A DNA stretch of 64,000 nt. Source: Convolutriloba macropyga (lineage: Eukaryota). The position numbers were made by a program, and so were the translations under genes. The notes under the pieces are model-generated. The model was not told the origin of the DNA, searched no databases, and saw only the letters and a list, made by a program, of their open reading frames with translations. The stretch lies in assembly GCF_964194025.1 (NCBI RefSeq), contig NC_134468.1, positions 36,084,001 to 36,148,000 of the forward strand, in the 5' to 3' direction. Numbering within the stretch: the first letter of the stretch is position 1; each line of letters starts with the position of its first letter. Positions 1 to 43,000 of this stretch are shown here, in pieces.

Positions 1-874
1 GTTAAGGATATAGATAATGTTAATGATAATGTTAATGATAATGATAATGATAATGATAATGTTAATGATAATGATAATTATAAAGATAATGATAATGATG
101 ATAAAGATAATTTTATATATCAGGGAACCTGCTTGGCAGATCTATTTGATGAAAAACATGATGAAACATGGCAAGCCAAGCCTTATCAGAAGGGTAAACC
201 TATTAACAATAGTCCTACTAACAATATTTCTGTAAATATAAATGAAGATCTACAATCATGGCTAAATGATGATGATATAATTACTGAAGCCACATTCCCA
301 GATAATTTTAGATGTATAATATCTGGTCCTAGTGAATGTGGTAAAACATTCTTATTATAAAGCTAATTCTAGCTAGTATATATTTTGATAGCTATACATC
401 ATTGGACCTTTTAGTGATCAATACAATGGATTAGAAAGAATAAACCCAAAAGCAATTATAGAACTTTTTAAAGATATAAAAGATTCATCATCTCCTGATA
501 AACTACCCAAAGACTTAAAGAAACTAAAGATATTCGATGATAATAGAGCCAAAGGACCAGTTATTAATGAATACTTTTGTAGAGGTAGACATAATAATTG
601 TAATATGATATATCTTATTCAAAATCTATTCACAATAGATAGGCAGAGTGTTAGAGAGAATTCTAATCTATTTATTTTATTTGAACAAAGAGGTAAAGTC
701 CTCATATCTATATATCAAGATTTCTTTAATAACGTTGAACATAGTTATAAGGATTTTGCTAATAAATGTAATAAGGTATGGAAAGAGCCATATAATTATA
801 TTGTCATTGATAAAACTAAAAATAAAAATATTAATGGTAAACGAAGAATTAATTGGCATCGGAGAGTTTTGTAG
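1..874 (+). pseudogene. A32/FtsK-like genome packaging ATPase, disrupted
   Basis: Frame 1 is open from base 1 (DN-rich tract), with Walker A IISGPSECGKT, then TAA at 358-360 and frameshifts. Downstream are Walker B-like KIFDD, RGRHNNCNMIYLIQNLF and VREN (ORF 605-874). Confidence 0.88.
14..110 (+). repeat. (GATAAT)n-like microsatellite encoding an Asp/Asn tract
   Basis: gataatgttaatgataatgataat... in frame with the ATPase N-terminus. Confidence 0.85.
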
Positions 875-1382: not shown

Positions 1383-2120
1383 TTACATCGCCATTAAATT
1401 TATAGGTCTTCCATGCTCATCTTTAATATGAAATTCTATAGATTCTATTCTATCTTTAGTTACATTTTGATACAAGATATTAGTTCGTATAATATTTATC
1501 AAGTAACCTGGTGGTTCTGTTAGAGTAAAAGTATATAGTATGTCAGTGTTATTCCCATTATCTTTAACACCAGATATCACATTACAATGAATGTTAATAG
1601 TACTCAAACCCATAATATCAACAATTTTCTGAGATGTATTTTTACCTTTTTTATAAACTATTTTTCTAAATCCTAGTAATGGGGCTATTGAGTTTTCTAT
1701 GTCAAAGTTAATTGCACCTTGTTTTACTTCCATTAAACTTTTCATTGTACTCTTATCAGATTCTATTATAACATTACCATTAGTTTCTTCTTTTATTAGT
1801 TCTGCTATTTCGAATAATTCATATGCTCCTGGTATAATAGCTGAAATACGGGTATCTGGCCATGTTGGGGAACCAGGGCCGTAGGCCCCTTCACCTTGGG
1901 TATCATATAAGAATTGATTGTTCCTTCTATTCACATTAAACACCGTATTATAAACAGATTAAACTAATTAAACCTAATTTTGACGAGTTAAGTATAGGTT
2001 TACTAAAATAAACTTTTCTGTTGGCTTTATCATTCGAAAGTTAAGTGTATGCTCTTCTTTAGTTTAAGTTAAAGCTTCATGTATATTTTGTATTTCCCTT
2101 AAGATTAAATTGTCTGTCAT
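1383..2120 (-). pseudogene. Minor capsid (penton-like) protein, disrupted at the 5' end
   Basis: ATG at 2120 (MTDNLILREIQ...), then a stop and frameshifts, then YNTVFNVNRRNNQF..IIPGAYEL..APLLGF..INIHCNVISG..NG..DILYTF..EPPGYLI..IKDEHGRPI. This pattern is typical of Polinton minor capsid proteins. Confidence 0.8.
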
Positions 2121-2136
2121 TTTTTATCTAATAAAA

Positions 2137-3297
2137 ATGGACTTTAATTTGGATACAACTTATGGTTATAATAATGATATACACAAAAGTAAGATTATAA
2201 AAAATAAAACAAATAATCTGGCAACAATGAATACAATCAATACTAACATTAATATCATTCTCAATAGAGAAGAGAATCATTTAAATTTGCTTGATTCATA
2301 TCTAGAGATAGAGTTTGTTTTATCAGATGATGCTGGTGGTGTATTTGCTAATGATGCTAATATCAGATTAGTTAATTATGGTATGATGGCATTGTTTAGT
2401 TCAGTTAAGCTTGAAACTAGTGGTGGTAGGACTATTGAAGATATAGATCATTGTCATCCTAATCTATTGATGTATAAGTTATTAACGAGTACTATTGATG
2501 AATATGAGAGTGGTTTTTTAGAAATCAAGGCAATAGAGATCGTCAACTTAAAGGTGATCATATTGCTGCACAACGAGGTCATATGTGTACGATGATTAAG
2601 ATGAGTGATCTATTTGGTTTCGTAAATGATTTAGAAAAGATTATATATGGTTTAGGATTTAAACTAATATTAAAAAGAAATAATAATGATAGAGCTCTAT
2701 ATAGAGTTAATGCTAATCCTGGTGCAGTTGCTAATGATTGTAATATAGATATTCAAGATATATCATTGTGTGTACCTAGTATTGATCCTAATAATGACAA
2801 TAGAATTATTGTGCAAAATCGTTTAAGTAAAAAGAATAATGTAGACTTTAGTTATTATGAAGGAAAGACATTTTATAAGAAAGCACCCAATGCTACTAAC
2901 TTCTTGTTTGATCTAGGTATGGAAAGTGGGATGGAAAGACCACAATATATAATAGTTGGTTTTAAAAATAATAATGTTAATGAACAAACTCATGATGCAA
3001 GTACATTTGATATAATGAATGTTACTGAATGTTATTGTAAGATTGGTAGCGAGTTTTATCCTGAGGAGAGAATGAGTATTAATTATGGTACCAATAATTA
3101 AAATGTGGCCTTTAAAGAGATTTCTAGCTTTGATGAAGATTATAATGGGCTACCACATAATATAAAACCATATAAAAATCATTAAACATTCAAAAGTAAT
3201 TGCAGTTGCCAATGTTATATGTCATGCATTAGTATTAATTAGAAAGGTTATTAGCGTGAATAGTGATAGTAATAAGATGGTTGATGTTATATCATAA
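2137..3297 (+). pseudogene. Major capsid protein (double jelly-roll, hexon-like), frameshifted
   Basis: ORFs 2110-2595 and 2583-3101 join by a frameshift: LLDSYLEIEF, NYGMMALFSSVKL, LFGF..DLEKIIYG..FKLILKR, ERPQYIIVGF, STFD, IGSEFYP. C-terminus VICHALVL...KMVDVIS* ends at 3297; probable internal deletion near 3200. Confidence 0.85.
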
Positions 3298-3540: not shown

Positions 3541-3947
3541 ATGAGTCTTTTACAGAAATTTAAAACGAATTTATATTGTGTTGGAGGTAGACATTATAGT
3601 GATACTAATAACATAATAGGTTTTATTACTTCAAAAGTTTCTAAAATGTTAAAGGATAAATGTGTTAACTGTAAGAGAAAAAAGTCAATGACTGTTAGTG
3701 ATGCAACAATAGAAGCAGAGGGATTGAAAGTGTTGGTAGGGCTACAGTTAACTTTGGAGTGAAGGTTGCCAATAATCCAGTAAGAGCATTAGAAATAGCA
3801 AGTAAAATAGGAAGTGCAGCTGCATCTAGAATCCCTAGAGCTGCTTTATCAACCACACCTGATTTAATTAAATTTGCAACTACTGGTGAAGGCATAAAGG
3901 TAGTACAAAAAGGAAGAGGGTTATACTTAGGTACTAAGCAGAGCTAA
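3541..3947 (+). pseudogene. Putative virion core/precursor protein, one frameshift
   Basis: ORFs 3541-3762 and 3759-3947 join near EAEGLK. N-terminal YC..GRH / CVNCKRKKS Cys cluster, an Ala-rich amphipathic segment and C-terminal QKGRGLYL resemble the GxGL motifs of Polinton core proteins. Confidence 0.6.
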
Positions 3948-4062
3948 TTATTTGATTATGATTATGATTATTTTATGTTTATATTTATGTTTATGATTAT
4001 GATTAAGTTATATTTATGATTATGATTATGATTATGATTATTTTTATATTTTGTTTATGATT
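3945..4062. repeat. (ATTATG)n-like microsatellite between convergent genes
   Basis: gattatgattatgattat... tracts. Confidence 0.85.
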
Positions 4063-4719
4063 ATCGATCTGCGAAGCAGGTTCCCTGATCGGTGTAACCG
4101 TTTCGCTGATAAATATTAATACTAATATTATTATTACTAAACATACTATTATTACTAAACACCAATAACTTTGGCTTAAAAAAATACTCAGTTTGTTTTT
4201 CTTGTTCTTCTTATATTCTTCATATACATTGACTAATTCATTATACTCATCATTATCTATTTTATTATCATTCATTGATTTACTATATAGTCTATTAAAA
4301 TTATCGCTAAACTGTTTACTTAAAATATACATTTGTGAATATTGTATATTTTTATTTCTAACTTTAATATTAATTGTTTTTGATAATGAACCACAAACAG
4401 TTGCTGGAGCAAAAACTGTTGGTATAGAATAGGGTAATCCTATACCTGTTAATGCAACTGATGTTGATGTTGCAGTTGTTGCTATAGATGATAGTACTAT
4501 TTCTGTTATCTCTGCTACGTTAATATAATTCTTATATCTAATTAACTTCTTATTATAGTTATTAGTTTCAGTTTCATAATAATTTCTAATATCTTTTATA
4601 ATGTTAATATTGTTGTTAAAATTATTATTAGCTTGGATTTTTCCATTTATGTATTGTTCACTAACGGTTGACAAGTTGGGATATAGTAATCTCTCACTCG
4701 GTGCTGTTGGGTTAGTCAT
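4003..4719 (-). CDS. Polinton/adintovirus membrane-associated coiled-coil protein (resembles the family annotated as gasderminX)
   Basis: N-terminal PTAP and LYPNL, a central hydrophobic hairpin (IVLSSIATTATSTSVALTGIGLPYSIPTVFAPATVCGSLS) and SKSMNDNKIDNDEYNELV. The last ~55 aa run into low-complexity DNA and may be read-through. Confidence 0.65.
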   Translation of the reverse strand: MTNPTAPSERLLYPNLSTVSEQYINGKIQANNNFNNNINIIKDIRNYYETETNNYNKKLIRYKNYINVAEITEIVLSSIATTATSTSVALTGIGLPYSIPTVFAPATVCGSLSKTINIKVRNKNIQYSQMYILSKQFSDNFNRLYSKSMNDNKIDNDEYNELVNVYEEYKKNKKNKLSIFLSQSYWCLVIIVCLVIIILVLIFISETVTPIREPASQIDNHKQNIKIIIIIIIIINIT

Positions 4720-4732
4720 AGTTTCAGTTATT

Positions 4733-5458
4733 TTATTTCGTAAAAATTCTTTCTATTTCTTTCGTCATATCTTCTTGTTTAAAACCATAATGCATCTCAA
4801 GCCTTGCTTGCTCTTTATTATCAACTGACGTACTTCGTAAAATTTTAACAATTATATATTGTACTATTGTCCTTTTATTCTTTAAAAGGGCTTCGTCTAG
4901 AAAAAAATTTGTGTTTTTATTAACTTCTTTAAATTCTTTTAGCCCAGTAGTAAACATTTCATCTCGTTGTATTTTAGTGATATTCTGATTAATTTTATTA
5001 TTATCAATCTCTAGTTTCAGTTGATTATATTTAGAGATAGTATCAGCAGCAAATTTATTACAAAACTTAACAGTGTTTGTGACTTCATTTGCTGATTTAA
5101 TAAATTCTGTAATTAGTTCTTCATTAACTTGTGTTTCATTTAGTTGTAATGTTTTAGTTGTAACTTTATCAAAGTCACCCTTTCTTAGTTCAGTTATGTT
5201 TCTACTTAAAATGTCTATTTTATTAGAAGAGGATAATAAGTTACTGTCACAATACTCTTTATTAACAACATCTTTTTCATCTATCGGAGGATGTACATTT
5301 GTAATTTTATAGGTATCCTTCATATCAATATTATCATTATCTTCTAGGAATAACCCAACAGCCTTACTTGGTGTTAAGTTGTTTGTTGATGTTGATATTG
5401 ATCCGAGAAGCGGGTTCCCCGATTGATGTTTAGCTTGATTGAATCTATTTCTTGTCAT
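4733..5458 (-). CDS. Fibre/adhesin-like protein with neck motif and coiled coil
   Basis: IDMKDTYKITNVHPPIDEKDVVNKEYCD matches the DM..kItNl..P....DavnK.YvD motif of phage tail fibres and trimeric adhesin necks; a heptad-rich region follows. Confidence 0.6.
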   Translation of the reverse strand: MTRNRFNQAKHQSGNPLLGSISTSTNNLTPSKAVGLFLEDNDNIDMKDTYKITNVHPPIDEKDVVNKEYCDSNLLSSSNKIDILSRNITELRKGDFDKVTTKTLQLNETQVNEELITEFIKSANEVTNTVKFCNKFAADTISKYNQLKLEIDNNKINQNITKIQRDEMFTTGLKEFKEVNKNTNFFLDEALLKNKRTIVQYIIVKILRSTSVDNKEQARLEMHYGFKQEDMTKEIERIFTK

Positions 5459-5479: not shown

Positions 5480-6464
5480 TTACAGAATTATACCTAATGA
5501 TTCCAAAACCTTATTATTAGATTCAAAGTCAAACTCGGAATTTAATAGTTCATGTTCATAAAATTTACCTTCTAATATCTCTCCATTAATATCTTCTATT
5601 TTATATGTTGGTGGTTGTGTTTTGAGAACTTAAACAGTTATTAACTTTAAACAGTTCTCTATTCCGATTAGAAATGTAACCTTTAGAGAAGATATTACGT
5701 TTATCTGCATTTCTAACTTAATCACCAACTTTAATATTGGGTTTAGTATTCCTATAAATGAATGAGTATTTAACGTTATCAGGATTATTAGAAGCATCAG
5801 CAGGTGTCATATTAATTGTTGAATGAATGTTATTGTTATATGTTACAACAGCATCATTTAATACATTTACCCAATTACCATCACCATTGATGAACATAGG
5901 TTTATTTATTATATGTAACAATTTTCTTTTGAATATCTCTATAAACACAGCCTTTAAATCACTATAAGTAGAATATAGTTTTGTTTCATATTCTTTAAGT
6001 AAAGATTTAAATGTTTTATTGTAAAACTCACTACCTCTGTCTACCCATAACTTTTCTGGTTTTCTACTTTCACTTAATACTATTTTAAAACCATTAGTTA
6101 TAGATAATTCAGATTTATTCTCCAATGGAATAGCCCATGCATATTTTGTGAATCGATCTATAACAGTTAATATAAACTTATAATTTTTATTGTATTTACT
6201 TAGAGATGACTTATCAACTAAATCAGCTCACCATGTTTCATCTTTATATAATGGTATTATTCTTTCTCTTCTAAACTATGTTATTTGAGGACTGAATATT
6301 TCTATAGCTAGTAATTTTTGTTTAGTTTTAATCGTGTCTTGTTTACTTGTGGATATAGTCATCTGCGAAGGGGCTCCGCCCTTGGTTCCCCAAGCGGGTT
6401 CCCTGATGGACGTAGTCATAGCTTTGCTCATCTGTGAAACAGCTTCCTTGATAACTTTGTCCAT
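5480..6464 (-). pseudogene. Retroviral-type (rve) DDE integrase, disrupted
   Basis: ETW*ADLVDKS..YKFILTVIDRFTKYAWAIPL..KPEKLWVDRGSEFYNK..KAVFIEIF..YNNNIHSTINMTP..KVGD*VR..FSKGY..PPTYKIED..GKFYEHEL. In-frame stops present; no chromodomain seen. Confidence 0.92.
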
Positions 6465-6469
6465 TTTTG

Positions 6470-6846
6470 TTTATATAACATAGTTTAAAAAAAATTATCT
6501 AGTTGCTCTTGATTAATAATATACATAGATAATAGTTGCTTAGATATATCTAGCATTTCATCATATAATCCATCATGACCAGCTTTTGTTTCTAGTATTA
6601 ATAATTCTAGTCTTTCTATTAAATTATTTGGGTCCAAATAGTGGCGCAACTTGGGGAACCAAGGGCAGAACCCCTTCGTTGGTTGGCTTTGCTAAGACCA
6701 CTAGCTTCTATTTGTTTATCAGTCTCATAATCGGTGTAACCGCTTCGCAGATCAATCTCATAATCAGTTTCTTCTTCTTTTTCTACTATCCCTTGTTCAT
6801 TGGAAGTGAGAAAGCTCAATCTAGTTCCACTAGCATGGCGGTCCAA
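6470..6846 (-). pseudogene. C-terminal part of a conserved uncharacterised Polinton protein
   Basis: After a frameshift it reads YLDPNNLIERLELLILETKAGHDGLYDEMLDISKQLL, matching the DPNxLxxRLxLL...AG(N/H)...E...I motif recurrent in Polinton ORFs. Confidence 0.65.
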
Positions 6847-9800
6847 ATGTTACAAAATAAAAAACAAACCAAGGGAAGAAATCAAACCAGTAGATAAGGA
6901 AAGACAAATTAGAAAAATCTTTAGAATCAATCAGAAAGTTTAATTGTGTAAATGAAGAAATAAAGGAGTCGTATGATAAACAGGATGCAAAATTAAAACA
7001 AAGAGAAGATATGCGTGAGTCATTGCGAAAGGCTGAAGCAAAATATTTTCCAGATTTAGATCAATCTAAAGACTTAGATCAATCTAATGACTTAGATCAA
7101 TCTAAAGATTCAGATTTAGACTCATATTCATCCGATGATTTTGTCTAGGTCCAAAAGCCTAAAACAAATAAGATTAGATGTGAAGAATGTGATGAAGAGA
7201 TAACTCGAAAGAATTATAACAGACACATTCAATCGCTTAAACCTAAAAAAAGAATGAGCGATTATATAATAGAAATAAAATCATTGAGAGTGCTAATGAG
7301 GATGGAATAAAAGTTACTAATGACGATGTAGAACAAAAGTTGGATGAGCAGTATCCTGAACTAGATGGAATAAAGTTTTGTGATAGTTGTGATATGTATC
7401 TTGATAGTAATACTGCTTATGATAATCATGTGACAACATTAAAACATAGGAATAATGTAAGATTGGTTAATGGGGAAATAGTAAAGAACGGGAGTAAGTT
7501 TGATTTTGCGATATGCAAGACAAGTCTGAGTCAATATAGCGTGTATCAACAATTAAAAACAAAGATGCATATGGATAATGCTAATCTACGAAGCGGTTTC
7601 ACCGATGGTAAAGATCTGTGAAGCAGTTTAACTGATAAGGATATAGATAAGGATATAACTAAGGATAATATGGCCGATGGATATTGCAATAAATGTAATA
7701 ATAGATATAACAATAAAAATGAACACAATGAATCAGATGCACATAAGGAAAATGTTAATCAGAAAAAACTTGTTGATGGGAAGTGGCGAGATAAAGTTAA
7801 TGAGTTAGGATTAGATCATAACATGAAGCATAATCAAATAATAATAACTAGTAGTAATTATGAAGATCCTCAATTCTTAAATATACTGGAGTCATTGCAT
7901 AGCATACATCCCCATATTAAGTTTAACACCTTCGATGTAGTTAAGTATACAAAACCTACAGATGATAAGTTAGAAGAAAACGAATTCACTTTTAGGTTAA
8001 TGACAAGGCAATATAATGGTGCACATAACTTGGGTTTATTGAATGGGGAACTTGAGTCGAGAATGCAGGAGCAAGAGATGAATCAATTTGGATGGAGCAT
8101 GCAACGATTTGTTAAAAGGACAATGTATATTCACAGGTTTTATCCAAGTGGTGGATGTGATACTGAGTTACCATTCACGTCTATATATGAATACTTAATA
8201 TACATAATACTGATAATAAGTGTCTGCTATGGTGTCTAATTCCTTATCTACATCCTGCATCACGTGATCCAAATAGAGTTAATAGAGTAAATAAAATAAA
8301 CCTGAATATATTAATGAGTTAAAATTACCAAATTTGGGTTATACCCCCATATGATTATTATTACTTAAAGAAAATACAAGAACTAAATAAAGATAAAATA
8401 TTATTTAATGTGTTTAATCTAAATAAAAATAAAACTTTTAATCCTGTATTAATTAATCATAATGATCCTAAAAGATTAAATATATTATACTGGGATAATC
8501 ATTACTTCCTATGTAGAGATGTATCATTCTTATTAAGAAAATCATCTAAACATATATGTTATCCATGTCTGGAATATTGTGTATCATTTAGAACAGAAGA
8601 TGGATCAAATAAACATTTGGATTTATGTAATAGACAAAAACATATAGGTAGAAGAATTTTCCAAAGATGATTACCTAAATTTTGATAAGTTCCATTATAA
8701 GAATAGAGTACCATTTGCTATGTATTATGATTTTGAATGTAGAATAAAAGATGGTAAACACTTACCTATTGCTTGTGGTTTATATATAAAAAATGACTAT
8801 CCTGATATATTAAAAGATAATTATGAAAGTTATTCCGGTGAAGATATAGTTGATTGGTTTGTGGAAAGAGTAGATTATTATAATAAATTATTTAAAAATA
8901 ATTTTAGTATAAATATTCCACTTAATGAAGATACTATTACTCCACTCACTAATATGTGTTACTATTTTAATGGGAACTTCGGTGAACACGTCGTTAGAGA
9001 TCATGATCATCTAAATGGTAAATTCAGAGGTTATGCTCACAACAAATGTGACCTCCAAGCTAAGAATACAATCGTACCAATATATGCATTTAATTCTTCT
9101 AATTAGGTTAATCATCTATTTATAACTAAACTAGCAAAGAAGATTAGACTTAAAGTATTAACTAAAACTGATGAGAATTATATTAGTATTGATATGGGTT
9201 ATGCTAAAGCATTAGATATGTTTAGGTTCTTCCATCAACTTAGCTTAGATGCTATAAGTAAAACATTGAGTAATGAAGAATGTATAACATTAAAAAAAAT
9301 GTGGCTTAGAAAGACGTAAAGGTATATTCCCATATGAATGGTTTGATAGTATAGATAAACTAAATGAAACAACATTACCACCTAAGGAAGCATTCTGTTC
9401 TAAGTTGAAACAAATTGGTTTTACAGATAAAGAATATAAGCAAGCAATTGATTGTTGGAAAGATACTAAATGTGAGACAATAAAAGATTATATGAGGTTA
9501 TATCTTAAAACAGATGTATTGTTATCACTTGATGTATTTCAGAAATTTAGAGCAATTTGTTTAGAATATTATGAAATAGATCCATGTTACACATATTCTA
9601 CTCCTGGGTTAAACTGGTTGTGTGGAATGAAATATACTAATGTTAGACTTAAGTATTATAAAGAGAATACAGTTAATATTTATGATACAATACAACACGG
9701 TATAAGAAGTGGGCTAGCTTCAGTATTAGGTGATTGTCATGTAAAATATAAAAATAAAGAAATAGAACCTGAGTATACAGGGAAAGAGAATTATCTAAAA

Positions 9801-10990
9801 TATTTAGACTTCAACTCATTATATGCTTCTGCTATGGTTCAAGCTTTACCTAATGGTGAGATCGATGTATGTGAAGAATTGGGCTACACTAGATCTAGCG
9901 CTAACACAGGTTATGTCTACACCATCGATATTAGGTATTGTGATGAGTTGAAACAGAAAACAAATAAGTATCCATTCTTCCCTGAGAAAACAAAAGCATG
10001 TGTAGATCAGTTTACAGATTATCAAAACGTAAATAAAAAGAAAGGATATAAACCTAATGAGAAGTTAATGCTAAAATTAACAGATAAGGTAGATTATGTA
10101 ATAGATGGAGAGATGTTAGATTGGTATTTAGATCATGGTTTGAAATTAGAAGATATTACAATTAAGCAAAAGTTAGAATATAGTAAGAGTGAATGGTTAA
10201 AACCTTATATTGAGTTTAATAATAAGAAAAGAAAAGAAGCTAAAGCTAATGGTGATAAATTTGGGGATGTATTCATTAAACTAATGAGTAATGCCTTCTA
10301 TGGAAAAACAATAGAGAATGTATATAATAGACAAGATGTAGAGTTGGTTAATGATGTAGATAGGTATATAAAATTAGTAGAAAATATAAGTTTTATATAT
10401 GCTGTGGAATTCGATAATGAATTAGTAGCTGTACATAAAGCTCGAGGTAACGTAAAATTAGATATGTTTATTTATATAGGTTTTGTTATATTAGAAAAAG
10501 CTAAGCTATATACGTACAAAGCCATATATGATTACTTTGAAAAAAAATTAGATTGTAGTTATCATTGCACAGATACAGATAGTATATTCATAAACATAAA
10601 TGTTCCTTTAGATAGTAATATAGAAACTGAAATGAATAAGATAAAAGATTTTTTACATAATGATGAGTTAGGTAAGATGAAGGATGAATTACCTAATGAT
10701 ACTATTATAGAAGCATGTTTCCTTAAAACTAAAGCATATTGTTACAATACTGTTAAAAGAGAAGAAGAGAAAAAGTTAAAAGGTTTAACTAAAGCCACTA
10801 TTAACAAACAGATTACATTGAAAATTAAACTAATGCTATATATGAAGGTAAAACTAAGTATGTAACTAATTATACTATTGATAGTAATAAACATCATTTA
10901 GAAACTAAAGAACAATATAAAATAGCTATTGATCCATTTGATGATAAAGGTATTAGAGCTAGTAATGGTGAATTTAGGTTTTACAACTAA
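6847..10990 (+). pseudogene. Protein-primed family B DNA polymerase with N-terminal zinc fingers and endonuclease VII-like insert, disrupted
   Basis: ExoI YYDFEC, VRDHDHLNGKFRGYAHNKC, KGIFPYEWFDS, ExoIII LYLKTDV, motif A YLDFNSLYASAM, motif B KLMSNAFYGKT, motif C TDTDS, LGKMKDE, KLKG. Spread over ORFs 7340-10865 with several stops and frameshifts. Confidence 0.93.
7053..7112 (+). repeat. 18-bp coding tandem repeat (DLDQSK/N x3)
   Basis: gatttagatcaatctaaa / gacttagatcaatctaat / gacttagatcaatctaaa. Confidence 0.85.
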
Positions 10991-11307
10991 TTTTTATAAA
11001 ATAATAGCAAAAGTTAAAATTTATAAAAGAGTTAAGCTGGTTTTTTATTCAAGTTATCCACGAAGTGGTTACAACAATTTTCGAAAGTTGGTTTTACGTG
11101 CTTTTTACACGGTCTCACTAGTTTTATACTAGTATCTGGGATACGTTCACTGGAGTCAGTGAGGATAGAACCCGAACTATCCGTCTGATAGTGGACAATT
11201 ACCAGCTTAACTCTGTACTAGTGGATTGCACTAAGTGAGACAAGAAATGATAGATTTAAAATATAAAAGAAGTGAATATAGAGTAGTGGATATATAAAGG
11301 GAATTAG

Positions 11308-11373
11308 AGTAATGTGTATATGGGTACCGTCTCGCTGGCTCTATGCTGCGGAGGTACCCATATACACATTACT
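11308..11373. repeat. Perfect 21-bp inverted repeat with 24-nt loop at the candidate Polinton end
   Basis: agtaatgtgtatatgggtacc (11308-11328) and ggtacccatatacacattact (11353-11373). Confidence 0.95.
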
Positions 11374-14054
11374 TGCATGGCCGATTACGCTAATTTCCGG
11401 CTAACAATACGCCATTGGGCAAAAATTGCACGTCAATCCTAAATTAATCCCGAATCAAGACTGATTTATTCATGAACAATAGACATGAAAAGTAGACAGA
11501 CAAATGATTTTTATCCTAAATCAGAACCTGAGCTACGAATAATAATATAGCAAAAATTTCTCAGAATTTCGATATTAAGTATTTTTTCTGCGATTGTTTT
11601 AATCGCCAAGAATAAACAAAAAACAATTAGACTATACAAAAAAAACAACTGACGATGTGCTCGCCAATTTGCTAATAAATATTGAGAAAGTTGAATATCT
11701 GCAAACATTTACTGAACAAGATTAATCAGTATTTAAAAAATAAGTTGGAAACTAAATGTTTAGTAGAAATTTAAATTAAGGAGACGCTGGCTCATTATAA
11801 TGCAAAAACTCTGGTTTTTTACTGATTGTGCTATAAAAATTCCTATTATAACTCTATCAAGTGAGAATGGCAGACTCGGGGGTTGAATAAATAGAGAATA
11901 ATATAAAAAAAGGCTAGTATAAGTAATTTTCCAGCCCAACAACTGAAACTTGTTATTCTGGATAGCTAAACCTCGAGAGACATTAAAATATACAGTTGAG
12001 AGTTTGCGAGGAACTAAAACTTCTTGACAAAAGGAAAAATACAATTTTTTGACAATTACTTCCATTATGTTCTTTAGAACCAGTTTTTTCTGATAGAAAT
12101 TTTATCCCTATAAATCTTATCCCTATTATTCCAAATGAGCAGTTTCCTGAACCATTTAACTAAATATTGGACCTACAAAAGTACCTTTTGCAATCACAAT
12201 CAATCCTGTCACTGAAGTTGAAAAATACCATACAAATAGGAAAAACACAAACGCAGAGTCAAAAAACTTCCCACATTATATGTGGTTTTTGTTGTCAAAT
12301 CCCGTTTTTCTCCAGAAAACTAATTCAAATAACTCTAAATTGAGGTAATTTCGTGTCCAGATTGCAAGGCTTTGGTCCTAAAAATAAGTAAAAAAATCGT
12401 TTTGCATGAGAGGAACTGATCAAAAGAGCAAAAAACCAGTTACACATTTATTTTCATTCCCGAAATAAATTGGCCGGAACGAAAGCGTTGATCGAGCAAT
12501 GGTAACGAGCTATAGTGGTGAGCTGCAAAATATAATCAATCTGGGGTTTTAATCAAAGAACTTTCACAATAAGGAGCACCGACTTCAAACATTCAAAAAG
12601 TACGAAATTGCTACGACTACAACCTTGTCATAAATGATTTCTATTATAGCAAAACTTTCATTGATGTAACTTTCAACGTTGCTACTTCTCCATGAGAGCA
12701 AACAAAAAATTGAAAACACACAAAAAAGTAAAAAAAAATTGATTGGAGCAGGTCCTTGTAGAGTCCGTTCTTAAGCAAAATTAAACATAAGGAGCTGAAA
12801 ATAAGGAGTTGAAATCCCAAAAAGGCCGTTTTTGAAAACACACAAAGAGGAAAGAAATACATTTAAGAAGGTCCCTGTAAGGTCCCTATTTAAATCTACA
12901 ATAAAAATAGAAGTATGATGGTAGCTTTTTCTTGCAGGCTATGCATAAATAGAGGAACTTTTTTCAAGAGATATAAAAAAGCTATAGTCGAAATTGAAAT
13001 CCCGAATAGGCCGTTTTTGTAAACAAACAAAAAGCAAAGAAATCCTTTGAAGAAGGTCCCTGTAGGTCCCTTTTTTAAGCAGAATTAAACAAAGGAGCTA
13101 ATCAAAATTTCATTGGCTTTTAAAATCCTTCAGTATATGACATACTACGAAAATAATGTGGGCATCATACTCACTACGAAAAGCACTTTGACCCAGGGAA
13201 AAGCACTTTGACCCACATATTTTTAAAGGACGGTGGACTGTTTGAGAAACATTCCATAAAATTGCAAAGCTTGAAGTTATGAATTACTTATGGTAAATTT
13301 CTGCATATCATTGCCAACGTTAGCCTATCACACGCTTTTGTATGACTTTCACTAATCTAGATGACTTTCAATAATAGTAGCAAAAATAAGACATTATTAT
13401 TGTCATGCCAATATTAGCAAAATATTTTTGTTTAAAATTAATCAAGATTTTTTCTTTTCTGATCAACATTATGTGCTATTTGTTTGGATTCAGAAAAACG
13501 AGCTCCGCCAAAAAGCTTAGGTAACAAAAATGAGTTACTTGGTAACATTAAAATTTTATTATACTTACGCTGTAAATAACTGAGAGAATTTATTCATTGA
13601 TGCGCTTCGTTCATATAAAGCAAATCTCAGAAATTATCAATATTATAAAAGAGATTTAAACCACCATTCAGTTTTCAGTATGTTGCTACCTTTTCATCAA
13701 AATGATATTTTATAGTTTCTGCTGAGTAGCTAAAAATCGACTCTTGCATTAAGTTCATGAAAATTTGATACACTGTCCTGATCAGAAGTAAAATTTTTGG
13801 CTGTTTTATCCAAAAACCAAGCATTCAAAAAAAACAACCAAAAGCAAAACCGTTCAAACTACTTTGATTGAGTCAGCAGGCTTTTTGCCTCAAACCGTGT
13901 TAATTTAGATGTTTGAAGTCAATTCCTCTCTTGACCGAAGTATATTGCTAAGAAAATTTTTTCTACATCACTAGAAAGGTCTCTCACAGATGACGTTTGC
14001 CGACTGAATTTTAAGGCGAGAATATGTCAGTTAGTATAGTTTTTAAATTTCCAG

Positions 14055-14492
14055 ATATCAACCAAGAGTATCTATACCCAGTGATCAACCAGTCGGTGCC
14101 TCTAAAGCTACTTTATTACACTGAACACGAGCAGTGGGCAATATCAGACAAAGTGTACATGCGAGAGATAAATGACTGGCAACATCCATCTAGCGCCAAC
14201 ATGAACATGATCAGAGTTGATGTTCCATTAAGACGCCGTTCCCTATTCTTCGGAGTTTTCCTAATCTACCCAAACCTCCTCCTCTACCTTTTGTCAGTAT
14301 TTACGTATTTGCTTCCCCCTGAGTCTGGAGAGAAAGTAAGCTTTGCAGTTACTCTGTTTCTGGCACAAGTGGTCAACTTTGGAACAATGTTGACAATATT
14401 TCCGGCAACTTCTCGTCACCTTCCGATTGTCGTATATTTCGCCTGTGCTGTCTCTGGTCAAATGATGGTCATGTGTTTTTTCGCCATATGTG
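14055..14492 (+). CDS. Cys-loop ligand-gated ion channel (nAChR/5-HT3-like) copy 1, exon with loop C and M1-M3
   Basis: tttccag acceptor and G|gtgagt donor; EHEQW..LRRRSLFF..LIYP..YLLPPESGEKVSFAVTLFLA..IFPATS..LPIV. Confidence 0.9.
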
Positions 14493-15112
14493 GTGAGTGT
14501 GGACCGAAAAACAGGAGTTCAAATTTGATTATTTGGAACTCAACTTAACGGTGGGAGAGAAAAAACCTTTGCTTACCTACTTTATTTCGTTGGTCATTAT
14601 TCACCAACAGATTTATACTTAAAAAAACTGTTCGGTAAAATTTTAGGATCAATTTTAGGATCAATTTTTGTTCTTCATTTTTCTTGCTTTCGTTTTGACA
14701 AACTAACTATAGCAAAACAATATACTTAGAATTTAATTGCAGGCGACAGCCAACTGAAGGAAAGACATTATATGCTCAATCAATTAGGAAATACTACCTA
14801 ATAGTTGTTAACTTTCGATCAAATTGTTGTTGTGGAAAACTTTCACAAGATACTTCAACATGTTTTTGAAAATATCTAAATTCAACACTTAGAACTAGAT
14901 TGAAAGCTTATGTCGTAAAAACCCTAAGTAATCGCAGTGCAACAAAATTCTTCCTTGCTGTTTTTTCTCCTTTTGTCTATTATCTTCCGTCAAAAAAAAC
15001 ATCACAAAGAACCTTCTTTTAATTTAAGGCACATGATTTTATACAGCCCATTACCTGTATTCGTAGCCAAATACATTGATTCACGTTTGCGATATTCGCA
15101 TTGACATAAAAT

Positions 15113-26079: not shown

Positions 26080-28414
26080 ATGACGATGAAATTTGTTGAG
26101 GAAACAGTCATCATAGATCTACAGCGGTGTTTTTTTTTGCTGCTATATATTTAGTAGCTGTTGAAAACAGTCGAATTACGGAAAAGAAACAAAGAGCATA
26201 AAACCTTTTCGATGGAACAAAGATTATTTAACCTTGGTATTTTCGGCTTAAATGAAATTATAAATCATCAGAGAAATTTGATTCAATTTTGACTTTGTCT
26301 TTATATGTCTAACCAGATGTAAGAAAATTTCAAGCACAATTTCTAAAACATTTCAAAACACTCTAAAACTTGCTGGAATTCATACATTGAAGAAGGTATT
26401 ACCATGGTCGCATTATAGTATGAATTACGTAGACAGCGGGGAAAAAGGTCAGGAAAGCAGTTTACTACCAAACATGTCAAAATCTTTTGCCGAAAAGTTT
26501 TATGGTTCAATCAAGCTGTGAAATTATTGTGCATTGGGAGAAAAATTGAATTCAAACAGTAATACACATAAAAATGAGGAATTTTTAAAAAGATAAAGAA
26601 CAGAAACTTTCGGGAGAAAACGCAAGACAAAATACCTTCGACAAAAAAATTGGGCAAAATATAGTTAAGCATTGAAAAGCTGCTTCAAAAATCAGGAGAT
26701 GTTGTGATACCTGATCATCCTTTTGATCGATCCACCCCACCTATTCTGGAATCTGGGAATGCTATCCCTCCCAAAATGCATATTGGGTGAGGGAAATCAT
26801 TCCCCATCTCCCATGGGTGAGACGGATCGATTTGCGCACTCAAAGCGTTTGATCCCCCGTGTTGAATTTTCCCGGCCAAAATGACGTAAGAGNNNNNNNN
26901 NNNNNNNNNNNNNNNNNNNNNNNNNNNNNNNNNNNNNNNNNNNNNNNNNNNNNNNNNNNNNNNNNNNNNNNNNNNNNNNNNNNNNNNNNNNNNNNNNNNN
27001 NNNNNNNNNNNNNNNNNNNNNNNNNNNNNNNNNNNNNNNNNNNNNNNNNNNNNNNNNNNNNNNNNNNNNNNNNNNNNNNNNNNNNNNNNNNNGGTTTGGA
27101 TTTATAATGGCTCAGAGAAACGGAGAATCGTTAAAATTAACAAAATGAGACCCCGCGGTTCTGCGAAAGAAACAAAGCGACATTTGTCCGCAAATATGAA
27201 AGAAAGTATGCGTCAAGATGAGAAACATATAAAAACTATAGCTTAGCAAACAGCAACTAATTGCTAAAAACAGTTAAATGCCAAAGAAAGAACAGAGATT
27301 CAAACTTGATAATTTTAATAGATTTAAGGTTTTTTTCAATAAAATCTCTAGCTAATAATATTGAGCAACCTACATGAATAATGCATTTTTTATGCCTAGT
27401 TTTTTTAAGAGTTTTTTTGAGAAAAAGTTAATTCATTACTTCAAGTAAAATTTATTGAGTCTCTGCTTGCACAAGACTCAATAAATTCAGGGTTGCACAA
27501 CTGCACAAAATTGAGGAACAAAGGGGCCTCCCGTCCAGTTTTAGGAAGCAAAATGAATGAGGATTAATGAAGGGTTTTTGTGCTCTTGAAAGGAGGGGTA
27601 AACCAATTACTTGTTGCATATAATAAGGCAAGACAAGTTTCTAGTCAAGTAAATTCAGGTTACAATTTTTCAGTTTATGTTTTCTCGGTTAACCGTTTTG
27701 CTGGAAAAGTTTGGACGGAGTCAACTTTTTCTCATGCGTTGACTTCCTCTTGAAGTTGCGACTTTCATCCGCAACATGCCTAAACGCGCTGTTCTTTTCA
27801 TGAACTTTTTGAAATCACCAAAAACTTTTTTTTTTCAAGAAAACGGTGAATCGAACGTTTTAAAAAGAAGTTTGTTGCATAAATGACGCATCTTGAGCAA
27901 TTTCTGCGGTTTCGAGAAAAGAATTCGGAGGTACTGAGATGGCCTTCGAGCAGTTCAGAGATGAACCCAATTAGTTAGTTACGAGAAATGTTGAAGCGTT
28001 TTTCAGCTAGAAATGTTGTAATTGACTCAGGCATAGTCCATGAACCTGTAGGAAAACTATGGAAGCCTTCTGGATGTTAAAAAACTAAAAGCGTCAGTAT
28101 GTGTTACTAGTTAAATATAGAAATACTGTTTTTATGATTTGACGTCACTATTTGATGATTTGACTTTTTTGATGATTTGACGTCCTTGACTTGTACGATT
28201 TTATTATCATCGCGTTTACCCACTATGGTTAAACTATTAAAACCTTAAACAATAAATTTTTAACCCTGATAAGTTCGAAAAAAGCGATATCTTACAAATA
28301 CCTCATCAAAATTTCGCGCATCAAAGTCTTCCTAATGCAGCCACGCAGTTTTTACTACTTAATACTATTTAGTTACTTGTATAGTATGTAAATACGTTTG
28401 TTTCAATTTTCCAG

Positions 28415-28852
28415 ATGTGAACAAAAACTACCTTCAGCCAGATGAAAACAATTCAGCCCCACTCAGACTTCAATATTACACAGAACACGAGCAGTGGCTG
28501 CTTCCGACGACTGCCTACATCCACAAAGTATTAGACTGGCACCACCCTTTAACTGCCAGTATGAACATGATAGCAATTGAGATCACATTACAACGTCGTT
28601 CATTATTCTTCGGATTGTTTCTCATCTACCCAAACGTTCTTCTTTATTTCCTCTCAGCCTTCGCATACCTTATCCCGCCAGAACCTGGCGAGAAAGTAAG
28701 CTTTGCAATGACTCTGCTACTGGCAGAGGTAGTCAATTTTGGGGCGATGCTGACCATTTTCCCATCCAGCTCTCTGAATGTTCCTGTTATTGTCTACTTC
28801 GCGTGCGCGGTGTCAGGTCAGATGATGCTCATGTGCATTTTGGCCATATTCG
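28415..28852 (+). CDS. Cys-loop channel copy 2, exon with loop C and M1-M3
   Basis: tttccag acceptor and G|gtaagt donor; same 438-nt length and phase as copy 1; YLIPPEPGEKVSFAMTLLLA. Confidence 0.9.
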
Positions 28853-29086
28853 GTAAGTCTTTTTGACTTAAGCCGATGAAAACAGAATGTCCATACGATA
28901 AACGCAATATGTTAGGAGGCCGCATGCTTTTAATAGAAAACTTCATTGAATAAGAAAATCCATTCAAATACTGGTCATTCATTCTGTATATTTACCTTGG
29001 TTCTCTTAATAAGTTAGAACTTAAATTCAACCCTCAATAACTTCATCAGAGTCCCACAACCTATACATCACAGTAGTTCTTTTCAG

Positions 29087-29913: not shown

Positions 29914-30408
29914 TCATCTAATCATGTAAACTCCGCAAAAATCATTTTGTTGAAATTCAAGTTTTAGATTCTGGAACCCGTTATCTTGCGGATTCTTCTG
30001 AAAGTAAAAGCCTTCAATTGTTCCAGAACTTTTCTCCAAGCAGATATAATAGAACCCTGAAAAGGAGCACAACTCTGATTCCTTAGAATTTGGATTACTT
30101 TTCGGGATTATGAACAGCTCCTTCCAGCGCATAAAAATTGCATCAGCATTTATGAGTTTATTGTAATCAAAGTCATCATCGTTGAAGGTCGTTTCAAATT
30201 GTTTGAAATGCTTTGTGAATTTCGACCAATGGATTTGATCAATGTCATAGTCTGCCTCCCATTTGCGGGTGAGAAATGGGTGCTTTTCACAGATAATTTC
30301 GCCTTGGAAGAAGGTCGTGGTTTCTGAGTTGGGTTCTGGGTGAAGATTGCAAATGGTTAGTCGCCCGCAGAGTGTGAAAGAGTCGTAATCGATGCTCTCA
30401 AAAACAAC
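29914..30408 (-). CDS. GID4: GID4/Vid24 (CTLH/GID complex Pro/N-recognin), last exon
   Basis: tttcag acceptor; VVFESID..LCGRLTI..TTFFQGEII..HPFLTRKWEAD..D..HWSKF..DDFDY..IFMRWKE..SFSGFYYIC..IEGFYF..FQNLKL. Confidence 0.95.
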   Translation of the reverse strand, partial: VVFESIDYDSFTLCGRLTICNLHPEPNSETTTFFQGEIICEKHPFLTRKWEADYDIDQIHWSKFTKHFKQFETTFNDDDFDYNKLINADAIFMRWKELFIIPKSNPNSKESELCSFSGFYYICLEKSSGTIEGFYFQKNPQDNGFQNLKLEFQQNDFCGVYMIR

Positions 30409-31420
30409 CTGAAACAGTGGCTAAAAGGTGCATATATAACAATTAGCTTATCATACAACCAAAATTTGCCGTTCAAAAAAACGATTGCAAAATTTACTTG
30501 TCAATAGAACAACCATATTAGACATTCACATTTACAAAACGCGAGCAACATTCTGATGATTAAACACTAAACAGCCAGCAAGAAGGCTCGTTAATATACG
30601 TCACTCGTCTCATTCACATTTTTAACTGAATTGTCTCCCAAGAGAAAGAAAACAATTATTCGAAAGCAATTGTTAAATGAGTAAATGGTTTTAACCGAAA
30701 TACATTAAATGAAATAATGGCAGGTATGATACCTGTCATTAATACGACTACGAGAAAAGACAAACAATAAAAGAGAACAACGACAACAACATTAATTACG
30801 GTCTAACTCATTTTCTATTGGTTCTTCTTTTAAAAGAAACACTGACTAACGAAGTCAAAATTGCATCAACTAAAACCTAAACAAATCAACTTATACTTCA
30901 CTTCAAGCAGACGGGAGCTGTCCGTAATGAGATTCGGCAAAAAATCGACAAAAACGAGCACAAAAGGCTTTAAGGCATCATAACCATCTGCTTTCAACTA
31001 AAAATACTAGATAGATTTTTATGCAAATTCTTATAAGTCAACGAGATCGGTCATCAAAGCGATAATGAACTAAATAATGCCATCTTGGAGAGCCGTTGAG
31101 ACCTGCTATAAATGAGACCAGGAGGCAAGAAAAACGACATAAGCAGTTAACAAAAAAAGTTAATGATGACCAAAATTTTTTACAAGCACAAATCAAACCA
31201 GACAAAAGTCTAAATAGCATCAAAAAGCATCAGATAGAAATCTAAATAGCATCAGAACAAATTATAGTTCTCTAGAAAGAATATGAGACCGGTCCTGAAT
31301 GCGACTAGGAAATAAGTCGATAATAGAGCAAACTTAAGGTCAAGCTAAAGTCGACAAAACAAAAGCAAAAAGTTTGCAAAAGCGTTCATAATTTTGATAA
31401 TAATTAATTTCAAAATCAAA

Positions 31421-41886: not shown

Positions 41887-42915
41887 CTAATCGAGATCCG
41901 ATGCCTCAATTTTCGGCTCGCTGATTTTGATTCGTTTGGAGTCTCGGTTCAAATCTGTGGAATCATCTGCGTTTTCATCAGCAGACAGGAACTCATCTTC
42001 ATCGCCTGCTTTGTCAGCATCTCCATCGCCCATAGTTTCAAAGAGGGAATCCAAAAGACCCATTAAACCACCCCCACCGGACGGCTTTGGAACCGATAAA
42101 CCGAAATACTTCACGCCAATTTTCTCCAAACACGGCGCAAAACTTTGGTCTCTCTTCAAAGATTTCTCATAAGCGCTTGTCAGGCGCAAATAATTGTCTA
42201 ACTTTCCATTCGGAATGTGAACTAGTAGGAAATAGCAGCAATTAAGCAAAGGGAAATCGAAGGGGATATTTTTTGTTTGTATTTTGGGATGACACTGAAC
42301 GTAGAAGTCCAAAAAGGTTTTCGCATATTCAACTTCTTCAATGACTAGGTACTGCAGAATAGCTTGAGCTGCGAATAATGAGACCTCAGTTTGAAGGCCA
42401 GCATGTGATAATTTGATACAGAACAAGGCACATTTCTTAGGATCTGATGAAAAAATGTAGTGATATCTGGCCTTTTGAAGCTGGAATTCCTCTTCGTACA
42501 TCTTAGCTAAATACAAATGCAGCACAGGATTTCCACGGGGCAATTTTTGGGTTTTTGATTTTTTAACTGCTAAGTTTATAACTGAAATTCTATCGTCAGC
42601 TTGTTCTGAAAGCCGCCCTAATATCGACTTGAATTCAATCATTCTCTCGTGATTTCCAAATTCTGATGCTTTTGAAGCCAAATTGACATACTGATTCAGA
42701 AGATCGAACGTACTGTGAAAAACAGCATGATCAATGAATATGTTAGCACTGTAAGTAATGAGTTCGAAAGCGTCGGGGTAATTCTCTGAATTAGAATAAC
42801 GGAACAGAAGCGTGTTACACAACTGATGCGCCTCGTAGAAATTGCCAGCTTCAACGTGTGTCTTAAACTTCGACCTCAATCGTCGCCCAGAAGAATCTTT
42901 AGCGGTGGGAGGCAT
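41887..42915 (-). CDS. GET4: GET4/TRC35 (Golgi to ER traffic protein 4), single coding exon
   Basis: GNFYEAHQLCNTLLFRY, GNPVLH, ARYHY, LFAAQAILQYL, PLLNCCYFLL, YEKSLKRD..LEKIGVKYFG..GGLMGLL, acidic tail ending DLD. First true ATG is at 42915. Confidence 0.95.
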   Translation of the reverse strand: MPPTAKDSSGRRLRSKFKTHVEAGNFYEAHQLCNTLLFRYSNSENYPDAFELITYSANIFIDHAVFHSTFDLLNQYVNLASKASEFGNHERMIEFKSILGRLSEQADDRISVINLAVKKSKTQKLPRGNPVLHLYLAKMYEEEFQLQKARYHYIFSSDPKKCALFCIKLSHAGLQTEVSLFAAQAILQYLVIEEVEYAKTFLDFYVQCHPKIQTKNIPFDFPLLNCCYFLLVHIPNGKLDNYLRLTSAYEKSLKRDQSFAPCLEKIGVKYFGLSVPKPSGGGGLMGLLDSLFETMGDGDADKAGDEDEFLSADENADDSTDLNRDSKRIKISEPKIEASDLD

Positions 42916-43000
42916 CGGTAATAAGCGTTCCTTCAATGAAAATCTGAAAAAGTTATGTTGATATCAACAATAACAAAGCAGCAGAGCAATTTGCAAAATA

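Follow-up and report, generated by a model that had tools for sequence, protein, structure and literature searches.

Candidate ALIX- and TSG101-binding motifs are retained in the N-terminal tail of a SLATT-like protein of polintoviruses

The short N-terminal tails of a SLATT-like protein encoded by polintoviruses carry candidate late-domain motifs, YPx[LIV] and P(T/S)AP, which at the level of sequence are a family trait, retained at about 14-48% core identity and flexible in their order. We read the protein as a putative ESCRT-recruiting membrane adaptor, most likely for the non-lytic release of capsids, and give this reading a probability of about 0.5. A class of SLATT genes in polintoviruses and the use of late domains by non-enveloped viruses are each already known; what would be new is the recognition of candidate ESCRT motifs as a family trait of the polintovirus SLATT-like protein. 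Our search, which left subscription papers and some supplements outside its reach, found no paper joining polintovirus or SLATT genes with ESCRT late domains, and the accessible parts of PMC8097293 and PMC11131425 contain nothing on a SLATT-like gene. Until now the SLATT genes of Polintons have been interpreted as pores. With candidate ALIX/TSG101 motifs that are conserved yet free in their order, a non-lytic, ESCRT-dependent exit of Polintons from animal cells becomes concretely and cheaply testable.

A decayed Polinton copy of the gene

The motifs were noticed in the window, by which we mean the whole stretch of 64,000 nucleotides of the Convolutriloba macropyga genome that was analysed. An open reading frame on the minus strand (4003-4719) begins, as the first-pass annotation had claimed, with M-T-N-PTAP-SERL-LYPNL: PTAP, a candidate TSG101-UEV-binding late domain, occupies residues 4-7 (4699-4710, minus), and LYPNL, a candidate ALIX-V-binding late domain of the YPx1L type, occupies residues 12-16 (4672-4686, minus). 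The models, the profile match and the lengths of the copies give the SLATT-like gene a family-typical extent of 182 codons (4174-4719, minus). The window product has 238 a.a., and its last 56 residues (4003-4173, minus), a copy-specific read-through tail outside the family protein, come from non-coding, partly repetitive DNA.

The gene sits in a decayed Polinton of ~15 kb. This setting, also claimed at first pass, was confirmed by neighbours that match the Pfam double-jelly-roll (DJR) capsid, rve integrase and protein-primed DNA polymerase B (pPolB) families and by terminal inverted repeats of 384 bp at 98.2% identity, the right one at 10998-11379 and its partner at L117:6400-6783, ~3.6 kb upstream of the window. 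Within the window, the element comprises a broken packaging-ATPase-like gene (1-874, plus; tblastn to the ATPase of the polintovirus contig L031, E 4e-16), a piece of a minor capsid (penton)-like gene (1386-1958, minus; tblastn to the penton-position ORF of L031, E 1e-9), a DJR major capsid gene in pieces (2068-3152, plus; PF21738, E 1.7e-14), a 241-a.a. ORF that lies upstream of the SLATT-like gene and has no Pfam match (4733-5458, minus), a broken rve integrase (5483-6227, minus; PF00665, E 4.7e-8) and a pPolB region in several pieces (7622-10987, plus; PF03175, E 7e-15). Together with a protease-like ORF upstream of the window (L117:9293-9778), recognised by translation only, the element holds the Polinton core genes for pPolB, rve integrase, DJR capsid, packaging ATPase and protease, most of them broken. 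A 6-bp target-site duplication and AG/AGT end motifs were not seen at the BLAST-defined ends, and the true ends may differ.

Several other features of this region were observed. The 241-a.a. ORF is fused in frame to the SLATT-like gene in 5/168 close database copies (P0006, P0058, P0061, which represents 10 members, P0064 and P0090) and in 2/30 genomic copies (L013 and L021), which may stem from decay within a T/A run or mark a lineage in which the fusion is genuine, and by eye it contains a short motif resembling the repeats of the fibre-position ORF of L031. Two P-loop ATPase-like genes, both broken, apparently lie in the element on opposite strands (L117:8133-9217, minus, and window 1-874, plus), with the protease-like ORF between them. 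A GC-richer sequence of ~25 nt recurs inside the element in both orientations (window 119-145, 4063-4096, 6392-6414 and 6730-6756; L117 near 9470) and is possibly a regulatory repeat, and degenerate ATG/ATT-type triplet repeats separate viral genes (window 1-120 and 3940-4060; L117:9782-10000). Elsewhere the window contains host genes, namely two ligand-gated ion-channel exons, an exon of the GID4/Vid24 family and a GET4 gene with a single open frame of 358 a.a. (14015-14548, 28363-28866, 29914-30420 and 41887-42963 together).

In the host genome (1.18 Gb), the SLATT-like gene has at least 150 matches that were scored, out of 7392 candidates, and we compared the 30 best-scoring copies, 28 of which align at the start. 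The protein is 182 a.a. long in 13/28 of the start-aligned copies, and the frame is open for at least 177 codons in 17/28. The earlier suggestion that the ORF is meaningfully still open while its neighbours are broken did not survive this comparison: with 17/28 copies open, a gene of such small size often keeps its frame, and openness is not evidence of selection on the window copy. A stop falls within codons 179-192 in 29/30 copies, the window copy alone reading through, so we judged its 56-residue tail spurious; in addition, 153/168 close database copies are no longer than 205 a.a. Variants shared between copies in the read-through tail are 9 synonymous and 36 nonsynonymous, as in non-coding DNA. 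The strongest hydrophobic segment of the window copy (peak 3.71, residue 187) also comes from the read-through, and we dropped this C-terminal segment as a third membrane helix since it lies in that tail.

Across the gene in the 30 copies, private variants (61 synonymous, 193 nonsynonymous) resemble neutral decay; the ratio among variants common to at least two copies (44 synonymous, 53 nonsynonymous) suggests that purifying selection acted on the gene during the active life of the element. Shared variants in the motif codons number only four, three of them synonymous and one nonsynonymous that falls at the free x position. The SLATT-like gene was thus useful to the virus and the window copy is not special, being a decaying read-through allele that probably has no function.

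Predicted fold and motif retention in the family

The fold was modelled with two AlphaFold2 predictions of P0009, a natural 182-a.a. relative that is 86% identical to the window protein. The models (mean pLDDT 79 and 84) place residues 1-15 in a coil (pLDDT 56-62), followed by helices at 16-90, 95-150 and 156-181, with a hairpin whose turn has a pLDDT of 58-62. In the window copy, the predicted membrane-inserted helical hairpin covers residues 74-113 (4381-4500, minus), flanked by a basic segment on each side. The central hydrophobic hairpin noted at first pass therefore stands as a 40-residue stretch free of K, R, D and E, though its hydrophobicity is modest in this lineage: the Kyte-Doolittle peak (19-residue window size) is 1.27 in the window copy and 1.2-1.3 in its lineage, and reaches at least 1.6 in 35/42 family representatives (defined below). 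Both hairpin flanks are net positive in 42/42 of these distant representatives, with a median of 0 charged residues in the turn, and the protein has no N-terminal hydrophobic segment. With both flanks basic, the positive-inside rule suggests that the N- and C-termini likely face the cytosol. A D-x-x-I-x-x-x-E-[YFH] loop precedes the last helix (4243-4269, minus); it is conserved in 39/42 representatives, with D151 and E158 nearly invariant, and we take it to resemble half an EF-hand loop.

P0009 matches the NCBIfam profile SLATT_1 (NF033634) over residues 44-168 (profile positions 2-119 of 132) with 23.9 bits (E 3.2e-5) against a cut-off of 41. The same profile matches 19/93 aligned members at E<=0.05, and Pfam SLATT_1 matches 2/93 at E<=0.01. 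SLATT domains combine a two-helix membrane hairpin with cytoplasmic helices behind it. Because the profile score falls under the curated cut-off, we call the protein SLATT-like and not a SLATT member; as modelled, the family protein is a SLATT-like two-helix hairpin. The first-pass annotation had recognised a membrane protein and overlooked this SLATT-like nature, and SLATT has already been read as a pore in papers on Polinton-like viruses (PLVs). Weak matches to pore or translocator hairpins were also obtained (AopB, E 0.0014; the RTX N-terminal domain in 18/93 members), which amount to a generic helical-hairpin likeness under the cut-off. Sequence and fold searches of the PDB returned generic helical bundles and nothing specific. 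An identity as GasderminX or cupiennin was dropped, since no gasdermin is among the listed profile matches and the SLATT label suits better.

Motif retention was assessed in a distant set of 129 proteins, consisting of P0009, 35 proteins hand-picked from the best 150 of 255 matches (at most 47% identity, at least 156 a.a.), 36 additional proteins and 57 complete ORFs from 81 loci. Ten with a missing N-tail or a short core were left out, and the 119 kept were clustered at <50% core identity into 42 representatives and at 70% into 66 rows. The N-tail contains YPx[LIV] in 30/42 representatives (shuffled-tail mean 0.99, maximum 6) and P(T/S)AP in 10/42 (mean 0.11, maximum 2; 2000 shuffles each), counts that do not equal independent events because the shuffles ignore shared ancestry. 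The form [LIM]YPx[LIV] occurs in 27/42 and strict LYPxL in 11/42. All 10 tails with P(T/S)AP also hold YPx[LIV], i.e., both motifs are present in 10/42 representatives and neither in 12/42. The rest of the protein (~178 residues) has neither motif in the 42 representatives, and PPxY is absent from all of them. As a control, the first 35 residues of 289 other ORFs of at least 100 a.a. from the same loci were screened, and 0/289 showed either motif. At the 70% level, YPx[LIV] is found in 50 of the 66 rows, P(T/S)AP in 22 and both in 21. The conservation check proposed at first pass therefore came out well for YPx[LIV] and in part for P(T/S)AP, among homologues of 20-45% identity and with the order reversed in some, whereas the strict pair of PTAP and LYPxL is not general.

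The motifs behave, at the sequence level, as short linear motifs and not as part of the structural core. The tyrosine lies anywhere from position 4 to 26, with no fixed spacing to the helix, and the N-tails are short and otherwise unalignable outside the motifs. Many relatives have ASAP, or I, M or V replacing the leading L, and P0245 and P0206 have F at the final motif position or in place of Y. At the 90% level, with ASAP included, 24 tails open with the SAP-type motif and 18 have YP ahead of it. In a quick IQ-TREE of the 66 rows, in which 33 of 63 inner branches are below 80, the YP-first order appears at three positions (P0263, the P0351 clade (99) and the P0367/L050/L031 group), and YPx[LIV] is present in both main branches; the 16-row branch with the window lineage has PTAP only in P0009 and P0122. 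Of the two, YPx[LIV] appears to be the core signal and the older one, with P(T/S)AP as an accessory repeatedly gained or lost. Closer to the window copy, P(T/S)AP occurs in 112 and LYPxL in 107 among the 120 matches listed of 560, and each in 151/168 of a larger close set, with D at x in 112 copies and N in 34; close copies share 76-89% identity with the window protein and so do not count as independent evidence.

Relatives of the gene are placed within virion-gene modules of polintoviruses. Polintovirus core genes accompany the SLATT-like gene in 12/17 metagenome loci of at least 4 kb, on which this count rests (63 shorter loci lie outside it), and the other 5 show the SLATT-like match only. 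L031, an IMG/VR contig of 17.6 kb, was found by scanning viral contigs with one alignment as the query, while scans with single proteins gave no matches. It is a near-complete polintovirus with genes for DUF2738, DUF5679+PLA2, the ATPase, the penton-position protein, the SLATT-like protein, the major capsid protein, pPolB, the protease and a long fibre-position ORF; the SLATT-like gene lies between penton and major capsid, and no integrase-sized ORF was recognised within the 16.8 kb examined. A PLA2-domain gene is carried by L031 and several other loci. A clade of polintoviruses (L068, L069, L084, L086, L090, L093, L104 and kin) lacks both motifs, with no hidden in-frame motif upstream. Because L084 and L090 of this group sit in polintovirus gene modules, polintoviruses can do without both motifs. 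The clade offers a natural negative control. In the host genome, exon-level matches identify one locus with a UEV domain and two with an ALIX-type V domain, a likeness at the level of the domain.

Possible roles of the motifs

In the accessible part of PMC8402826, P(T/S)AP binds the UEV domain of TSG101 and YPXnL binds the V domain of ALIX, and the late-domain consensus is given there and in PMC4880917. The first-pass annotation had proposed ESCRT recruitment; retention of the motifs in distant homologues with reversal of their order makes this well motivated, although 12/42 representatives have neither motif and the strict pair is not general. We consider functional binding of ALIX and TSG101 by the motifs quite probable and, given such binding, favour egress somewhat as its purpose. 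In the proposed mechanism, the SLATT-like hairpin would anchor the protein in a host membrane, leaving both termini in the cytosol, YPxL in the N-tail would recruit ALIX, and PTAP, in some lineages, would recruit TSG101/ESCRT-I. ESCRT-III would then sever the membrane neck around capsids at the endosome, plasma membrane or nuclear envelope, and the capsids would be released without lysis, as with bluetongue virus NS3. Several observations speak against this egress model: no capsid-binding element was identified in the protein, P(T/S)AP is patchy (10/42), the motif-less clade is still viral, and the hairpin is marginally hydrophobic in the window lineage.

The alternative that survives best, unlikely as we judge it, is that ESCRT would be recruited for a purpose other than virion exit. 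The motifs could sort the SLATT protein to multivesicular bodies or extracellular vesicles, or control a pore; in the latter variant, a pore-forming SLATT protein would act on ESCRT membrane repair, by controlling, delaying or titrating it, ahead of lytic release. SLATT is described as a predicted pore in the accessible texts of PMC12220804 and bioRxiv 10.64898/2026.04.29.721553, abortive infection or lytic egress is proposed in that of bioRxiv 10.64898/2026.10.13.758929, and the AopB and RTX matches, weak as they are, point in the same direction. The motif-less clade stays viral, as expected if the pore were the core job. However, two ESCRT motifs that are retained and repeatedly paired form the pattern of a budding protein, as laid out in the available part of PMC8402826, and the matches to pore families are generic and under the cut-off. 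Moreover, PPxY, the usual degradative sorting signal, is found in 0/42 representatives. If the motifs did serve pore control or sorting, they would still constitute a new host interaction for the SLATT-like gene family.

ESCRT may also not be involved at all, which we find more doubtful. YxxPhi is a class of tyrosine-based adaptor-protein sorting signals, and YPx[LIV] fits its pattern, or YPx[LIV] could instead form a structural cap for the first helix; in either case PTAP would be a sporadic proline-rich feature of the tail. A few relatives with F at the last position or replacing Y (P0245, P0206) and the 32/42 representatives without P(T/S)AP agree with this idea. However, 27/30 YPx[LIV] tails retain both a hydrophobic residue ahead of Y and the P that follows Y, neither of which YxxPhi needs; every P(T/S)AP tail also holds YPx[LIV]; and Y has no fixed spacing to the helix.

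It is improbable that the protein is a virion component acting at entry, whose hairpin would open the late endosome and whose motifs would engage ALIX/ESCRT for back-fusion or transport. The SLATT-like gene is located among virion genes, and adenovirus protein VI, which reportedly uses a PPxY motif at entry, would provide a precedent. Endosomal escape is indeed proposed for PLV SLATT genes in the accessible part of PMC12220804. Against this, L031 and several other loci already have a PLA2-domain gene suited to entry, and a two-helix hairpin with basic flanks looks integral and would be hard to fit in a non-enveloped capsid. Finally, that the motifs arose by chance within a single young family of transposons, as the non-independent agreement of the close copies might suggest, is very improbable and largely refuted by their retention at 14-48% core identity, the reversal of order and the shuffle and neighbour-ORF controls.

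ESCRT recruitment for non-lytic release thus remains our preferred reading. We propose, tentatively and at somewhat less than even odds, that animal polintoviruses have a dedicated egress protein, a SLATT-type hairpin with kinship to bacterial defence effectors that bears ALIX and TSG101 late domains, and that their naked capsids exit quasi-enveloped in ESCRT-made vesicles. If true, this would be the first exit mechanism for an ancestral dsDNA virus lineage and would open a way to germ-line spread that needs no lysis; a nuclear-type dsDNA lineage would join the viruses that blur the line between enveloped and non-enveloped, and a SLATT-type domain would be wired to ESCRT.

Relation to known systems

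Genes labelled SLATT have been reported in adintoviruses and polintoviruses by Starrett et al. 2021 (PMC8502044, Suppl. Fig. S2) and elsewhere in the polintovirus/PLV literature (bioRxiv 10.64898/2026.06.19.733378), and, as far as these sources are accessible, they are likewise predicted two-helix hairpin genes in Polinton-type genomes. In the Starrett figure, the rows for Hydra and Stylophora have a split 'SLA TT' label next to them, together with labels for SSDBP and dUTPase, and this resembles the layout of L031; the likeness is one of label and layout. Where accessible, these sources take SLATT for a pore that serves entry, lysis or defence: a predicted pore for endosomal escape in PLVs (PMC12220804), a predicted pore (bioRxiv 10.64898/2026.04.29.721553), or (bioRxiv 10.64898/2026.10.13.758929) a pore acting either in abortive infection or in egress by lysis. 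In the main texts of three of these sources, a term search found no ESCRT.

The closest functional parallel is bluetongue virus, a non-enveloped virus that, according to the accessible part of PMC4147694, exits non-lytically via its membrane protein NS3, whose PSAP binds Tsg101. Like the SLATT-like protein in our preferred reading, NS3 is a membrane-spanning protein of a non-enveloped virus with late domains and a role in non-lytic egress, and it has viroporin activity; it differs in using PSAP together with PPRY and not ALIX, in being a glycoprotein of an RNA virus and in binding capsid proteins (PMC4147694, same part). Homology between the two is unsupported, the Foldseek match to NS3 being weak (E 0.07-0.09, TM 0.24, rmsd 17) and Pfam NS3 being absent among the listed profile matches of the family, so we treat NS3 as an analogue.

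By fold, the closest BFVD entries in Foldseek, and the only three significant ones, are uncharacterised proteins of invertebrate iridoviruses (A0A5B8RH66, A0A068QKD3 and S6DF61; E 2e-5 to 2e-4, TMq 0.60-0.72, 19-23% identity, with a high rmsd in several), followed by SLATT-named proteins of giant viruses (NCLDV; E 0.03-0.7). The likeness to the three iridovirus proteins is one of fold. Polintoviruses and iridoviruses may have exchanged genes, and the proposed role, if true, would possibly supply a function for the related iridovirus proteins. One iridovirus buds by way of ALIX, Tsg101 and Nedd4 (PMC4880917).

The two motif classes themselves are those of retroviral Gag, in which the short unstructured tails of HIV-1 p6 (PTAP and YPXnL) and EIAV p9 (YPDL) carry them (PMC8402826, in the part available); the EIAV YPDL core is contained in the LYPDL of 112/168 close copies. 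Gag bears its motifs on the capsid polyprotein, whereas here the candidate motifs lie in the N-tail of a predicted hairpin membrane protein of a dsDNA virus.
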